A stretch of 62,983 nt of DNA from Candidatus Zambryskibacteria bacterium RIFOXYC1_FULL_39_10 (GCA_001824275.1 MHWW01000009.1:1-62983), one strand, 5' to 3'. Positions 2,240-7,406 are shown, counted from the first letter of the stretch. Translations and numbers: made by a program. The notes: generated from the sequence alone by a model not told the origin.

Positions 2240-3201
2240 ACACTAAAATTTTTAATAGAATACAAATCTTCTTCTTCAATTGGAGTATCATTTGCTATTT
2301 TAACTTCTTCTGGAGTTCTATCATCAATTCCCGCCTCTATTTTTTCATCCCCCTGTCTACTGTTTTGAAGCATCTTTAGAATATCTTCCAAATCGTCATT
2401 AGAGAAAAATTCAATCATTAATTTGCCGCCGTTTTCTTTCTTTTCAATTCTCACTCTAGTTCCTAAACTTTCGGCAAATTTCTCCTCCAAAGCACAAATT
2501 TCTGGGTCTACTGATGCGTTAAATTTCCGCACTCTTTCAATTGCAATTTTGCGAGCCGCTACTTCAGCTTCACGCACATTCATTTTGCGAATCATTATAT
2601 CTTGGAAAAGAACTTTTTGTTCTTCTGGTCTGTCAATGAGCATTAAAAGCGGCCTTGTATGTCCCTCATTTATTTTACCCTCCGAAAGGGCCGTGAGCAT
2701 CTCGTCAGGTAAATCCAAAATGCGCATCGTGTTGGTTACGTAAACTCGACTCTTGCCTATTTTCAGAGCAATCTGGTGATGTTTAAAACCAAACTGATCT
2801 GCTAATTTTTTGAAAGCTTTGGCCCGTTCTACTGGGTTTAAATCTTCTCTTTGGACATTTTCAATAATCGCTAACTCTAATTTCATTAAATCGTCTCGAT
2901 TGTCATCTCCCTCGCCCATACGAATAATCACTGGTACCTGAGAAAGGCCTGCCATTTTAGAAGCGCGCAAGCGACGTTCACCGGCGATAAGCTCATATTC
3001 AACCCCCAGACCATCTTCTTTAATCACCTCTTTGCGAGTAACCACGAGCGCCTGCAATACTCCGTACTGTTTGATTGATTCGGCTAAAGCCTTTAGAGCT
3101 TCTTCGTCAAATTCGCGCCTAGGCTGAAAAGGGTTGGGTTTGATCTTATCCACTTCTACCCAAAATATTGAGTTTTGATAAAAATTTGCAGTATTGGACA
3201 T
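2236..3201 (-). CDS. parB: ParB/Spo0J chromosome partitioning protein
   Basis: IKPNPFQPRREF, ELIAGERRLRAS, IIENVQREDLNP, HTH region. Confidence 0.93.
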   Translation of the reverse strand: MSNTANFYQNSIFWVEVDKIKPNPFQPRREFDEEALKALAESIKQYGVLQALVVTRKEVIKEDGLGVEYELIAGERRLRASKMAGLSQVPVIIRMGEGDDNRDDLMKLELAIIENVQREDLNPVERAKAFKKLADQFGFKHHQIALKIGKSRVYVTNTMRILDLPDEMLTALSEGKINEGHTRPLLMLIDRPEEQKVLFQDIMIRKMNVREAEVAARKIAIERVRKFNASVDPEICALEEKFAESLGTRVRIEKKENGGKLMIEFFSNDDLEDILKMLQNSRQGDEKIEAGIDDRTPEEVKIANDTPIEEEDLYSIKNFSV

Positions 3202-3284
3202 ATGCTTATTTTACATTACAATCTAAATAAATAAAAGATTAAAATTTTGATTTTGGTGGATATTTAGGGTATATTTTACTTATT

Positions 3285-3365
3285 GCCGGAGTGGCGGAAT
3301 GGTAGACGCGCACGACTCAAAATCGTGTCTCGCAAGGGGTGAGAGTTCAAGTCTCTCCTCCGGCA
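3285..3365 (+). tRNA. tRNA-Leu(CAA)
   Basis: GCCGGAG/CTCCGGC acceptor stem, anticodon loop CT-CAA-AA, long variable arm, TTCAAGT loop; CCA not encoded. Confidence 0.93.
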
Positions 3366-3426
3366 CAAATAGATACAAAGGATCGAGATTTATATATATT
3401 AGAGAAAAATAATTTTATTATAAAAT

Positions 3427-4149
3427 ATGCAAAGATTTTTTATAAAAATTTTAGCGGGTTGGCTTATTTTATCCTCTTTTGTAATTACGTTATTAAATTT
3501 TAATAATGAGATTGGTCGAGCAAGACTTTTCATGGCCTGGGGTCTTATTTTGATTTGGGTAGTTTTGGGTGGTTATATTATGTATAAATATAAAGATACT
3601 TTTAAAAGTATTTTTGAAAAAATACCGGGTAAATGGACAATCAAATTTTTTCTATTTTGTGTAGTATTAGCTCTTATTGAAGAAGCCGTTGCGACTCTCC
3701 TAACAAATATGGCTCCAGTTTTTGGAGCTCAAATTGGAGAAGCTTATATTACCGCTAGTACCAATTTTCTCCAAGTAGTATTGCATCATAGCGTAATAAT
3801 TTTCTTGCCTTTTTTTATTGCTTGGGTTTGGCTCCTAAAAAGATACGACTTTTCAGCCAATCAGGCCTTCTGGTTTTTTGGTATCACTGGCACTTTAGCT
3901 GAAGCAGTTTCTTTTGGAAATATAGCAGAATTTGGTTTATGGATATTTGTATATGGATTAATGATTTATTTGCCAACGTATTGTATTCCAAAAGATAGAG
4001 GGGCCAAACCAGTGAGGATATGGCACTATCCGCTTGTAATTGTTGCTCCAATTTTCTTTCTTTTATGTTTGTTCGTTTTGGCTTCTTTGTGGAAAGGAAT
4101 CGGTTTGCCTACTATCCCAAATTTCGGCACAGATTTAATAAATAGATGA
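3427..4149 (+). CDS. Hypothetical multi-pass membrane protein
   Basis: 240 aa, several hydrophobic segments; stop overlaps the ATG of the miaA fragment (ATGA). Confidence 0.7.
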
Positions 4150-4283
4150 ATAATCACAAATTAATAGTAATCCTCGGACCAACAGCAAGTGGTAAAAGTG
4201 ATATCGCAGTTGCTCTTGCTAAAAAATTTGAAGGTGAAATTATATCGGCTGATTCTAGACAAAATAAAAAAGGAAGTTTATAA
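4146..4283 (+). pseudogene. Truncated 5' copy of miaA (45 codons)
   Basis: [39 protein letters not shown] then NKKGSL*; contains the 87-bp repeat. Confidence 0.85.
4176..4262 (+). repeat. 87-bp perfect direct repeat, copy 1
   Basis: GGACCAACAGCAAG...GATTCTAGACAA identical to 5864-5950. Confidence 0.95.
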
Positions 4284-4413
4284 ACACTTCAAAGGAACAG
4301 AGGTTGAAGTAATTGGTATTGCTTTACATAGCGAAACCGAGGAACTCATGGTTGTTTATAATCATCCTGATCCAGTAAAAGGAAAAGAAAAAATAAGCTC
4401 CAAAATATTTTAA
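4263..4413 (+). pseudogene. DUF1653-like gene remnant
   Basis: [28 protein letters not shown] resembles DUF1653; no native start, C-terminus appears cut. Confidence 0.65.
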
Positions 4414-4415
4414 TA

Positions 4416-4443
4416 TTGACAATTAATTCTAAGTGAATAGACT
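4416..4443 (+). promoter_or_regulatory. sigma70-type promoter of the ncRNA-RT unit
   Basis: TTGACA(4416-4421)-N16-TAGACT(4438-4443). Confidence 0.6.
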
Positions 4444-4499
4444 GGTATCAGCTTAGTACGCCGTAGCCTTTGAGCGACCAGTCACAGATTGGTAGCCAC

Positions 4500-4804
4500 G
4501 GTCTAGGGAGAGGCGCCTATAAACGGTGAAAAAATTGGTAACAGTATTAAGCGATTCACAATTCCGTTACTTTGTGGTAACGGAAAGGAATCTGCGAAAG
4601 CAGAATTTCCATTTGGTTCGCAAGAAAATGCGATTCCCAATATCAACAAGAGTAACTCTGAATGTCCGCCACCCATGTGACGGATCGGGATCCAGATTTC
4701 TTTGAAATTTTGGATTCCAAGTAAACCGATCTCGGTTCCCCTCCTTGGGCATCGATGGTCCGAACCTTTCAGACGAACCCCATGTTGCCTCCTCTCCCTA
4801 GACC
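4500..4804 (+). ncRNA. Putative retron-like (msr-msd) structured RNA
   Basis: Perfect 14-bp inverted repeat GGTCTAGGGAGAGG (4500-4513)/CCTCTCCCTAGACC (4791-4804) enclosing hairpins 4562-4585, 4587-4610 (GAAA loop), 4665-4684, 4688-4718, 4724-4737; lies directly upstream of the RT. Confidence 0.75.
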
Positions 4805-4835
4805 CGCTGAAATCAAACGCTAAAGAAAGGTTAGT

Positions 4836-5786
4836 ATGTTCATTGACATTAAGGAATTCCTAGAAATTCACGATGATCCTCGTTTTGATAAGTATACCTT
4901 AAGGGATGTAAATCCAGTGAGTAAACATATTAAAACAAGGGAAATATCAAACCCAAATAAATCGATGAGAGAAATTCATCGAAGGATAATTCAGGCGGTC
5001 AAAGATGTCTACCTTGACTCGTCCAACCACTTTTCATCCACACACCAAAATGCCGATCGTCACAACAGCAGTCGTTTTTTCTATCAGACTGACCTAATGC
5101 ACGCTTATGCGAGTGTGCCACTTGAAGGGCTTGTTACAATTCTCTCTTCACTAAAACCAACGTGGGGAACAAAAAATGTCAGAGAGATCCTTACCACCTA
5201 CTGCTTTGATGAAAGTGGCGCAGGACTCATTGTGGGTGCACCAGCATCACCAATTTTGTTTAATATCTACGCGTGGCAAACGCTAGATATTCCACTTTTG
5301 GAATTTTGGCCTTACATGAATGATGAGGGTCAAATATTTCGCAAGTTCTACACCAGATATTTGGACGATTTAACATTCTCTTCGCCCGAACCAATTACCG
5401 ACAGTATCCGCCGGTCAATTCGACGGGTAGTCGAACAGGCTGGATTTCAGATCAACCATCGAAAATCAACTGTCCGTGATCTGAAAAAAGGTCCAGTTGT
5501 TATTACGGGTGTCGGGTTAGAATATAGACCACGCAGAAGCGCTAGACTTTTTTTGCCCCGCCATTACCTAAAGAGAATGAATGGATTACTTCATCTCGCC
5601 CTGAAGGGAGATCCTCGAGTAAGCCACTCAGAAATCGAAGGTTTGATGGGTGTTTTTTATGGAGTATTGGGTCGTAAACACCGACAATCACACCAATCCA
5701 CCAAACTCAATGCAACCGAAAGTAGATTTCTTGAAATGTATGGAGCTTATAGAGCTCAATACGAACGCGCCACCAATCGTAAATGA
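4836..5786 (+). CDS. Retron-type reverse transcriptase
   Basis: YLDD (5358-5369), NADRH (NAxxH region X), DLMHAYASV, VGAPASPILFN, GFQINHRKS, ITG (VTG-like region Y); AAGAAAGG RBS upstream; no maturase/endonuclease domain recognisable. Confidence 0.88.
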   Translation: MFIDIKEFLEIHDDPRFDKYTLRDVNPVSKHIKTREISNPNKSMREIHRRIIQAVKDVYLDSSNHFSSTHQNADRHNSSRFFYQTDLMHAYASVPLEGLVTILSSLKPTWGTKNVREILTTYCFDESGAGLIVGAPASPILFNIYAWQTLDIPLLEFWPYMNDEGQIFRKFYTRYLDDLTFSSPEPITDSIRRSIRRVVEQAGFQINHRKSTVRDLKKGPVVITGVGLEYRPRRSARLFLPRHYLKRMNGLLHLALKGDPRVSHSEIEGLMGVFYGVLGRKHRQSHQSTKLNATESRFLEMYGAYRAQYERATNRK

Positions 5787-5804
5787 TAGGTGGCGTTTCT
5801 TTTT
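5768..5804 (+). terminator. Intrinsic terminator ending the RT unit
   Basis: CGCCACC/GGTGGCG stem spanning the stop codon, followed by TTTCTTTTT. Confidence 0.7.
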
Positions 5805-5839
5805 ATATCAATATTTTTATTTATGGTATATTTGACATT

Positions 5840-6769
5840 ATGCAAAAATTAATTGTCATATTAGGACCAACAGCAAGTGGTAAAAGTGATATCGCAGTTG
5901 CTCTTGCTAAAAAATTTGAAGGTGAAATTATATCGGCTGATTCTAGACAAGTTTATAAGGGTCTCAATATTGGTACTGGCAAAATTACAAAAAAAGAAAT
6001 GAAGGGTGTGAAGCATCACCTACTTGATGTCGTCAATCCAAAAAAACGTTTTACTGCTTCTGATTTTGTCAGACTAACAAATTTGACGGTCGTCCAAATT
6101 GTTAGCCGAGGTAAGGTGCCGATTGTTTGCGGTGGTACCGGATTTTATATTGATGCTTTACTTGGCGACAAACAAATCCCTGAAGTGCCCCCAAATCCTA
6201 AACTTCGGGGAAAATTAGAGAAGAAAAGTGCATCAGAACTCTTTGAAATTTTGAAAAAACTTGATCCAGTGAGAGCTTCAAACATTGACGCTAAAAATCC
6301 GAGAAGGCTAGTGAGAGCGATTGAAATATGCAGAGCACTTGGTAGAGTACCCAAGTTGCAAATCGAAAATTCTAAATCCGAAATACGAAACAAATTCGAA
6401 ATAATAAAAATAGGAGTAAAAATTTCGAATGAAGAGTTAAAAAAGAGGGTAAATAAAAGGATAGAAAAATGGTTTAGGATGGGGCTTTTAAAAGAAGTTC
6501 AGAATTTACATAAAAATGGTTTGTCTTGGAAAAGAATGGGAGAAATCGGTTTGGAATATAAAATTGTTTCCCTTTTTCTTCAGAACAAAATATCAAAATC
6601 TGAGATGATTGAGAGAATGCAAATCGAAACTTATCAATACGCCAAACGCCAAATTACATGGTTTAAACGCGACAAAAATATTGTTTGGCGGGCCCACTCC
6701 GACTCGAACGGAGAACTTCCCTTTTGGAGAGGGAAATTATACCATTTAACTATAGGCCCATTTTCATAA
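5840..6769 (+). CDS. miaA: tRNA (adenosine(37)-N6)-dimethylallyltransferase
   Basis: [38 protein letters not shown]; C-terminus runs antisense through tRNA-Trp. Confidence 0.95.
   Translation: MQKLIVILGPTASGKSDIAVALAKKFEGEIISADSRQVYKGLNIGTGKITKKEMKGVKHHLLDVVNPKKRFTASDFVRLTNLTVVQIVSRGKVPIVCGGTGFYIDALLGDKQIPEVPPNPKLRGKLEKKSASELFEILKKLDPVRASNIDAKNPRRLVRAIEICRALGRVPKLQIENSKSEIRNKFEIIKIGVKISNEELKKRVNKRIEKWFRMGLLKEVQNLHKNGLSWKRMGEIGLEYKIVSLFLQNKISKSEMIERMQIETYQYAKRQITWFKRDKNIVWRAHSDSNGELPFWRGKLYHLTIGPFS
5864..5950 (+). repeat. 87-bp perfect direct repeat, copy 2 (in miaA)
   Basis: Identical to 4176-4262. Confidence 0.95.
6686..6759 (-). tRNA. tRNA-Trp(CCA)
   Basis: GGGCCTA/TGGGCCC acceptor stem, TCCCT-CTCCAAA-AGGGA anticodon arm, TTCGAGT loop, G73, CCA encoded. 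Confidence 0.9.
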
Positions 6770-7406
6770 ATTGGACAGCTACTGCTTTCAATTCTCTAGC
6801 AATCTTTGCGCTTCCATATCTAACACTTACACACCCCGGATATCCTTCTTTTTTGTATAAACCAGAGGTGGGTTTAAGATATGGCTTAATAAATTGCTCT
6901 ACTGGAATATTAGTTGTTTTTGACCAAAATTTCAACTGTTTCTTGGGGTTATGATAAGAATGTAAATGAACACCAACACTAAATTTTTTTTCATTTAAAT
7001 CAAAAGATTTTCTAAATATAGACAAGAAAAAGCGCACTAAATCTGGATCAGAATTTGTAAAAGATAAACCCTTTCTCACGTCTTTACTACCTTCACAATA
7101 ATAAATAAAAGCGCACAATATTTGTGCCACATTCTTGTTATAGACAAGCTTGGAAATTATTTCATCAGCAATATCAATTGCATTGCTTTCTTTGATCACC
7201 GTTTGAGCTCTTTTTGCTTTCTGTGAAGCCAACTGCCCAATCGTTATTCTGGTTAACAATCTCTTTTCTGCAGTTTTAGAAAGTGAAATATTCCTCACCC
7301 ATACTGAAGCTGAACCTTTTGCAATATGCAAAATTTCCACTATTTCATTCAATGAATAACCTTTTTTGCGTAATTCAACTGCTGCAAACCGTTCTTTTAA
7401 TTTCAT
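6750..7406 (-). CDS. N-terminal HTH + LAGLIDADG-like nuclease-fold protein
   Basis: LRKKGYSLNEIVEIL (HTH), YYCEGSK..FTNSDP, LHSYH, FWSKTTNIP pattern; stop codon lies inside the tRNA-Trp 5' end. Confidence 0.6.
   Translation of the reverse strand: MKLKERFAAVELRKKGYSLNEIVEILHIAKGSASVWVRNISLSKTAEKRLLTRITIGQLASQKAKRAQTVIKESNAIDIADEIISKLVYNKNVAQILCAFIYYCEGSKDVRKGLSFTNSDPDLVRFFLSIFRKSFDLNEKKFSVGVHLHSYHNPKKQLKFWSKTTNIPVEQFIKPYLKPTSGLYKKEGYPGCVSVRYGSAKIARELKAVAVQFMKMGL

Follow-up and report, generated by a model that had tools for sequence, protein, structure and literature searches.

The window analysed here is a stretch of 62,983 nucleotides from Candidatus Zambryskibacteria bacterium RIFOXYC1_FULL_39_10 (GCA_001824275.1, MHWW01000009.1:1-62983), a bacterium of the Candidate Phyla Radiation (CPR, Patescibacteria) with a tiny genome, originating from groundwater. 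Positions 4416 to 5804 hold a self-contained unit of 1.4 kb, which consists of a sigma70-like promoter, a non-coding RNA (ncRNA) with an inverted repeat, a reverse transcriptase (RT) of 316 amino acids (aa) and a terminator (Table 1). It is one transcription unit, bounded by its own promoter and terminator; the predicted transcript of approximately 1.35 kb would start with a structured ncRNA of approximately 360 nt, continue with the RT mRNA and end at the intrinsic terminator. An earlier note, made from the sequence alone, had described a stand-alone retron-like unit with a complex RNA and no effector gene, and its outline of the transcription unit was borne out. TTGACA-16-TAGACT is found at the promoter position given there (4416-4443), and -35-like and TAnACT -10 boxes are kept at the same position in four homologues (L170, L173, L169 and L168). 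The proposed ribosome binding site is GAAAGG, 7 nt ahead of the ATG, and the terminator placed over the stop codon is a hairpin (5763-5799) of -19.1 kcal/mol (z = -5.1), the loop of which holds the TGA.

The RT contains all the motifs previously listed for it (316 aa with YLDD, NADRH and ITG), encoded at 5049-5063 (NADRH), 5356-5385 (RYLDDLTFSS) and 5497-5517 (VITGVGL) of the open reading frame (ORF) 4836-5786. NAxxH, YxDD and xTG are conserved across 32 RT homologues, in which H76, D177, D178 and G225 are invariant and N72 is nearly so; judged by these residues, the enzyme appears catalytically intact. Regarding its affinities, the 24 best PADLOC matches were exclusively retron RT models, all of them weak and about equal in score (RT_VI 78, III-A 76, II-A 72 and Ec107-like 57 bits; range 45-78), and the NCBIfam model retron_St85_RT yielded 80.9 bits, below its cutoff of 235. 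A PDB search with the profile of the 32 homologues placed retron RTs first (Ec83 5.6e-30, Ec86 9e-29, Ec78 about 1e-21), whereas non-retron RTs followed at 5e-9 (group II) and 4e-8 (Drt2). The AlphaFold (AF2) model had a predicted local distance difference test score (pLDDT) of 90.8, and its 17 top Foldseek matches were all retron RTs. The best matches in sequence and fold are thus retron RTs throughout, with NAxxH and VTG family-wide, in agreement with the retron relationship claimed in the earlier note. The valine at the Gln position (GLIVGAPASP) was considered as an oddity resembling diversity-generating retroelements (DGRs) and was rejected: Ec83 has SVGAPSSP, and the position holds T, I or Q in other retron-like RTs (outgroup set; two PADLOC-typed).

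The distance to the described retron types was calibrated with four ordinary retron-like RTs from other phyla, scored on the PADLOC type models. Their scores were 267-362 bits on the type model that fitted best and roughly 130-320 bits on most others, whereas the 32 family members reached at most about 110 bits on any PADLOC type, with about equal scores across types (best E-value 2.4e-33). A tree was calculated from 198 RTs, including 53 rows of the family (three Saccharibacteria loci among them) and an outgroup that consisted mostly of distant typed retrons among the matches listed in contig scans with the family patterns. The 53 family rows formed one side of a branch with a Shimodaira-Hasegawa-like (SH-like) support of 99, and the nearest sequences outside the clade were at least 2.5 substitutions per site away. 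An exhaustive profile search (E <= 1e-30) yielded at least 522 clusters at 50% identity, the best 150 of which were mostly about 260-350 aa long. The named sources of the family are all Patescibacteria (Parcubacteria, Campbellbacteria and Saccharibacteria). The RT represents a deep clade with the region X/Y motifs and the retron fold, outside all 13 described retron types and typed clades. The case that the earlier note had named as fatal to its reading, an RT from a described clade with an RNA model already covering the region, was not encountered: no such clade covers the unit. PADLOC, NCBIfam, Rfam and the searchable literature yielded neither the clade nor its RNA, and no literature linking retrons to CPR bacteria was found. 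In two members of the family (P0052/P0059; L180, 3593-4849) the C-terminus of the RT carries a fused DnaG-type zinc ribbon (PF01807) with no Toprim domain, a hint that single-stranded DNA is what the enzyme or its product handles.

The RNA upstream of the RT is a genuine conserved structured RNA. The region 4440-4840 folds at -138.2 kcal/mol, compared with -102 +/- 5.8 kcal/mol for dinucleotide shuffles (z = -6.2), and none of 100 shuffles reached this stability. Covariation was assessed on the six closest RNAs, for which RNAalifold gave 62 pairs, 28 of them with compensatory double changes. In a direct count, 94.6% of the cells were paired, compared with 36-50% when the partner was slid, and pairs with double changes numbered 28, compared with 1-6; none of 500 shuffles reached the observed values. 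The helices supported by covariation are the closing stem P1 and the hairpins at 4536-4549, 4563-4584, 4587-4610, 4664-4685 and 4687-4718.

The perfect 14-bp inverted repeat reported at 4500-4513/4791-4804 is present as described and forms P1, with double compensatory changes at 8 of 13 pairs. Regarding the 15 homologous upstream regions, a perfect inverted repeat of 11-14 bp occurs in nine, with a different sequence in each; these repeats have an inner length of 228-327 nt, and their 3' ends lie 34-105 nt ahead of the inferred RT start. In a tenth region the match is limited to 9 bp. Long-range stems of 12-15 bp were seen in six of the eight distant homologues with enough upstream sequence, and equivalent arms of 9-16 bp, again of other sequences, in 17 related RNAs. 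Most homologues examined therefore keep the repeat, the loss of which had been put forward as a ground for discarding the retron reading. The purine-rich a1 arm is a family-wide feature. The RNA length of approximately 305 nt given in the earlier note has to be corrected: because the conserved sequence extends about 50 nt beyond a1 on the 5' side and takes in the promoter boxes, the RNA is approximately 360 nt long, with the transcript start probably about 50 nt upstream of a1, at the conservation boundary. A local hairpin is predicted in the leader, which alone is not significant (z = -1.0). Short-form RNAs with an inner length of 184-195 nt exist, and the subfamily of the window has expansions. 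No Rfam family was matched, either by the locus at E <= 1 or by five homologous loci at the gathering threshold.

Between the arms there are at least seven short hairpins, five of them with covariation support, where at least five had been claimed. The RNA is, as the earlier note held, unusually complex for a retron: it is multibranched, lacks a single long msd hairpin and is conserved with strong covariation. The long-range stem drawn there between 4631-4640 and 4745-4754 was not upheld; the segments are complementary at 9 of 10 positions, but none of the minimum free energy, centroid and consensus structures contains the stem, which falls where the RNA varies most. RNAduplex found some pairing of 4611-4663 with 4725-4766 in every homologue and no positional covariation between them.

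Two elements recur well beyond the close homologues. The first is the signature hairpin, the motif of which was found in the RT-proximal ncRNA of 11 of 23 family loci (10 upstream; in L174 downstream on the minus strand), with a second copy in L168, against a background of four matches in 2.4 Mb of other loci. A covariance model (R1) built on the 3' domain of the RNA matched the signature-hairpin region upstream of the RT in the distant loci L081, L177, L089 and L002; together with the adjacent hairpin, the signature hairpin has z = -3.2. The second is a box, (A)ACCU(U)UCAGC, located 20-35 nt 5' of a2 and able to pair with a GCUGA directly 3' of a2; GCUG directly follows a2 in most of 19 RNAs. 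The core of five pairs is kept in 14-19 of the 19 RNAs; in L174 and L001, double changes have replaced C:G by U:A. With moderate confidence, and in a pairing register chosen by the analyst, box and tail would form a pseudoknot with P1.

Second ncRNA copies in the short form, without an RT of their own, lie downstream of the RT in L168 (7320-7535, plus strand) and L174 (5279-5069, minus strand). Both have their own a1/a2 arms (16 bp in L168, 11 bp in L174), the signature hairpin, the UCAGC box and the GCUGA tail, and in L174 the second copy and the one ahead of the RT have matching a1 arms. At these loci a single RT may therefore serve two RNAs.

Table 1. Features of the RT unit and of the block that carries it (positions in the window)
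Feature	Position	Strand	Remarks
Inserted block, 1,688 bp	4263-5950	+	DUF1653 fragment, ncRNA, RT, foreign region upstream of miaA with its first 24 nt, then 87 bp of homology
Promoter, sigma70-like	4416-4443	+	TTGACA-16-TAGACT; -35 box 4416-4421, -10 box TAGACT 4438-4443; 10/12 match
Conserved 5' leader	4446-4499	+	UCAGCUnUAG..CAGCCUUUnAGCG block; alignment of five upstream regions
a1 arm of P1	4500-4513	+	GGTCTAGGGAGAGG (GGUCUAGGGAGAGG, purine-rich); perfect 14-bp inverted repeat
P2 hairpin	4514-4528	+	CGCC-UAUAAAC-GGUG; directly after a1; one in each close homologue, stem sequence differing
A-run	4529-4534	+	Conserved; after P2
P3 hairpin	4536-4549	+	Two pairs with double changes; 96.7% paired
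Inner long-range helix	4551-4555/4784-4788	+	GCGAU/GUUGC; 93% paired, one double change; weak support
P4 hairpin	4563-4584	+	UCCGUUACU/GGUAACGGA; double changes at 5/9 pairs
P5 hairpin	4587-4610	+	GGAAUCUGC-GAAA-GCAGAAUUUCC; double changes at 4/9 pairs
Variable region	4611-4663	+	Includes CGATTCCCAA (4631-4640); poorly alignable
Signature hairpin	4664-4685	+	Family-wide; GCCAC-N-CAUGUGAC at 4668-4681; 100% paired, four double changes
Hairpin beside signature hairpin	4687-4718	+	Covariation-supported
3' block	4759-4790	+	UCCGAACCUUUCAGACGAACCCCAUGUUGCCU; highly conserved, mostly unpaired; includes UUUCAG box 4767-4772 and GUUGC 4784-4788
a2 arm of P1	4791-4804	+	Pairs with a1; 277 nt enclosed
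Tail	4805-4812	+	CGCUGAAA; conserved; can pair with UUUCAG(C) box, pseudoknot with P1
RT ORF, retron-like	4836-5786	+	316 aa; RVT_1; NADRH aa 72-76, D86, YLDD aa 175-178, ITG aa 222-224
Intrinsic terminator	5763-5808	+	Hairpin 5763-5799, then UUUCUUUUU U-run; over RT stop codon

The genes next to the unit in the window are an ORF of 240 aa of unknown family, a truncated miaA' with a DUF1653 fragment, and miaA. Around the homologues, the neighbours are rpsI, groES/EL and genes for a SpoU methylase, MraZ, RNase Y, HxlR, a peptidyl-prolyl isomerase (PPIase), DoxX and tyrosine recombinases or integrases; further contexts are an AbiEii/Rep_O/resolvase island and a divergent phosphoribosyltransferase (PRTase) gene together with a phospholipase D (PLD) family gene. 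Every locus keeps a non-coding gap of 390-580 nt upstream of the RT. No recurring neighbour gene or linked effector was found across about 14 genomic contexts, and the absence of an effector is therefore a property of the family. The earlier note had reported no effector in the transcription unit and had allowed that homologues might carry one that was lost here; there is none in the unit, none is conserved beside the approximately 14 homologous loci, and the homologues carry none. In a single context (L175), a divergently transcribed PRTase gene and a PLD-family gene (2780-3421 and 1282-2388) lie 580 nt from the homologue; this PRTase neighbour is reminiscent of the PRTase effectors of type III retrons.

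The unit arrived at its present site as part of a larger block. A contig of a sister strain (L184, 2530-2741; ERZ28564009 scaffold_14238) contains the empty site, with the same 240-aa ORF followed directly by miaA; 4263-5950 is therefore an insertion into the 5' end of miaA, and the cassette is present or absent between close strains. A direct repeat of 119 nt (87 nt identical, 4176-4262 and 5864-5950) duplicates the 5' end of miaA. The left copy has the native start (ATG 4146) and runs for 45 codons to a stop at 4281-4283; this miaA', fused to the remnant of a DUF1653 gene (4146-4413; Pfam 3.7e-10), is the left insertion scar. In the working miaA (5840-6769), both the N-terminus (MQKLIVIL) and the region upstream are now foreign. 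Because the block includes DNA upstream of the promoter of the element, it was gained by recombination and not by retrotransposition, either through a single crossover of a circle or through homology-facilitated illegitimate recombination. The repeat unitig is at double depth and all copies of the cassette are 100% identical. A donor arrangement DUF1653-RT-miaA was not found among the homologous loci.

In the groundwater run X3, the unitig of the cassette (4233-5893) has a depth of 10.1, compared with 5.8-5.9 for its flanks, whereas all are at about 8 in run X1; the excess in X3 may stem from other strains with the cassette in other flanks or from extra copies. A tRNA-Trp(CCA) gene (6686-6759, minus strand) lies inside the 3' end of the miaA ORF and overlaps the end of a minus-strand ORF (6750-7406). 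An IS200/IS605-type Y1 transposase gene is located at 146-799 (PF01797 in the matching contig L161), 3.6 kb upstream, where it adjoins RelA/SpoT and ParB genes.

The reading that we favour, and hold to be probable, is that the unit is a stand-alone, two-component retroelement of the retron type which makes RT-DNA; product and function are what we infer from the features above. The RT would bind its own RNA, probably via the GCCAC-N-CAUGUGAC hairpin. The a1/a2 duplex, perhaps held in place by the UCAGC/GCUGA pseudoknot, would bring a G located at the inner end of a1, with its 2'-OH, next to a template just 5' of a2, the 3' block 4759-4790 being presumed to be the start of that template. From part of the conserved 3' region the RT would then make a small DNA copy, an RT-DNA resembling multicopy single-stranded DNA (msDNA), which would stay bound to it. 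Because linked effector genes are missing throughout the family, the RT-RNA-DNA particle would either constitute the functional output or act together with an unlinked host factor. Anti-phage defence or defence against other mobile genetic elements is the most likely role, because the cassette belongs to the accessory DNA: close strains differ in whether they have it, recombination brought it in, and in other places it lies beside recombinases.

Several observations weigh against this interpretation. The RT is far from every typed retron clade (45-78 bits compared with 130-360 bits; 80.9 bits compared with the cutoff of 235), and retron biochemistry can therefore not simply be assumed for it. 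The RNA has no single long msd hairpin, in either the long or the short forms, and its a1 arm ends G-rich and is followed by the CGC that opens P2, so that there is no invariant unpaired G right after a1. The role in defence is drawn from context alone. The locus was seen in assembled contigs of DNA runs only (Logan) and in no RNA run; in the Logan contigs the cassette is a single unitig without joints.

The alternative that fares best, which we nevertheless regard as unlikely, is a classical toxin-antitoxin retron with its effector elsewhere in the genome, or an RT-msDNA complex guarding a host housekeeping protein; the cassette would then be stand-alone in appearance only. Retron modules do exchange effectors, and stand-alone cassettes occur in clades 2 and 11 (PMC7736814); the homologue beside the divergent PRTase and PLD-family genes (L175/L176) would also fit. 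On the other hand, the cassette moved as a block of 1.7 kb without a partner, and the approximately 14 contexts have nothing in common.

Slightly less probable still is a logic similar to that of the defence-associated RTs (DRTs) DRT2 and DRT9 and of AbiK, in which the ncRNA would serve as scaffold and template for a cDNA of an unusual kind, for instance a rolling-circle concatemer, a homopolymer or long repetitive DNA; this cDNA would itself be the toxic or antiviral effector, which would explain the missing effector gene. The layout of a single RT gene with an upstream ncRNA and no effector matches the DRT2 type, the RNA has a conserved A-run and a mostly single-stranded conserved 3' block, and a DnaG-type zinc ribbon, a module that binds single-stranded DNA, is fused to the RT in some members. 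However, the RT is much nearer to retrons (27.9 bits compared with a cutoff of 390 for the Drt2 model NF041746 of NCBIfam; PDB 4e-8), the a1/a2 closing stem is a retron hallmark, and the frames of the RNA, on both strands, are no more free of stops than dinucleotide shuffles and are not conserved between close homologues. A hidden ORF in the style of the DRT2 'neo' was also considered; the long minus-strand frames hinted at by mononucleotide shuffles disappeared with dinucleotide shuffles.

That the unit is a decaying orphan of a retron that formerly had three components, or that it is a retroelement of another kind, for example a DGR or a self-mobile retrotransposon, is very improbable: it does lie in a recombination scar with the truncated miaA' and the DUF1653 fragment, and DGRs dominate the RTs of CPR bacteria (PMC8632793), but purifying and compensatory selection act on catalytic residues and RNA pairing across at least 522 clusters, no repeat resembling a DGR variable region (VR) and no second copy of any part of 4416-4840 occurs in the 63-kb window, and a block that includes DNA upstream of the promoter was not reverse-transcribed from its own transcript.

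Beyond the two-component retron reading of this single unit, a wider proposal can be put forward tentatively: Patescibacteria may possess a deep, lineage-wide class of self-sufficient retron-like ribonucleoproteins (RNPs), composed of an RT and a multibranched, pseudoknotted RNA and never accompanied by a protein effector, the output of which would be the RT-DNA or the RNP. If true, this would be a new mode of action for retron-type RTs, such as a decoy or sensor, a toxic DNA made upon a trigger, or a cellular role other than defence. An effector-less clade in which enzyme and RNA are both under selection raises the question of what the RT-RNA(-DNA) particle does alone. With its 1.4 kb the unit is compact enough to be expressed as such, and the a1/a2 stem, the signature hairpin and the box/tail pairing offer handles for mutagenesis. 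The family is also a possible source of new small RTs for genome engineering based on RT-DNA, and for ultra-small CPR bacteria, in which few defence systems are known, it provides a further candidate for an immune or retroelement function.

In the current view, retrons are tripartite defence systems that resemble toxin-antitoxin pairs, the RT-msDNA complex keeping an effector in check. The canonical tripartite retrons (Eco1/Ec86 of type II-A; Ec83 and Ec78 of type I-A) provide the best matches to the RT in sequence and fold, and their ncRNA is likewise located upstream and co-transcribed; the Ec86 msr also has a hairpin directly after a1, as P2 is here. Unlike them, the unit has no effector, its RT branch is at least 2.5 substitutions per site away, and no Rfam or known retron RNA model matches. 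Instead of the usual layout, an msr with one to three short hairpins and an msd with one long stem-loop, there are at least seven short hairpins, and the short-form relatives are multibranched too. Stand-alone msr-msd-RT cassettes are known from the Retron-Eco5/Ec107 branch of clade 2 and from clade 11 of Actinobacteria, and unusual ncRNAs and rare metagenomic types were anticipated in the same study (Mestre et al. 2020, PMC7736814), so that the absence of an effector is by itself not new. These cassettes share with the unit the promoter, the ncRNA closed by a1/a2, the RT with NAxxH/VTG and the lack of an effector. They differ in that the RT yields only 56.8 bits on the model RT_Ec107-like, compared with 180-210 bits for the cross-scores of typed RTs, in that the hosts here are Patescibacteria, and in that the RNA of the window is about twice as long and multibranched, with its own signature hairpin and box/tail pairing and not one long msd hairpin. 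With DRT2 (UG2) the unit shares its two components, an ncRNA and an RT, and the lack of a separate effector gene; it differs in the RT lineage, in having no conserved stop-free frame and in the long a1/a2 stem that closes its RNA. Set beside these systems, the unit is a conserved two-component retron variant that combines a new RT clade with a new RNA architecture.

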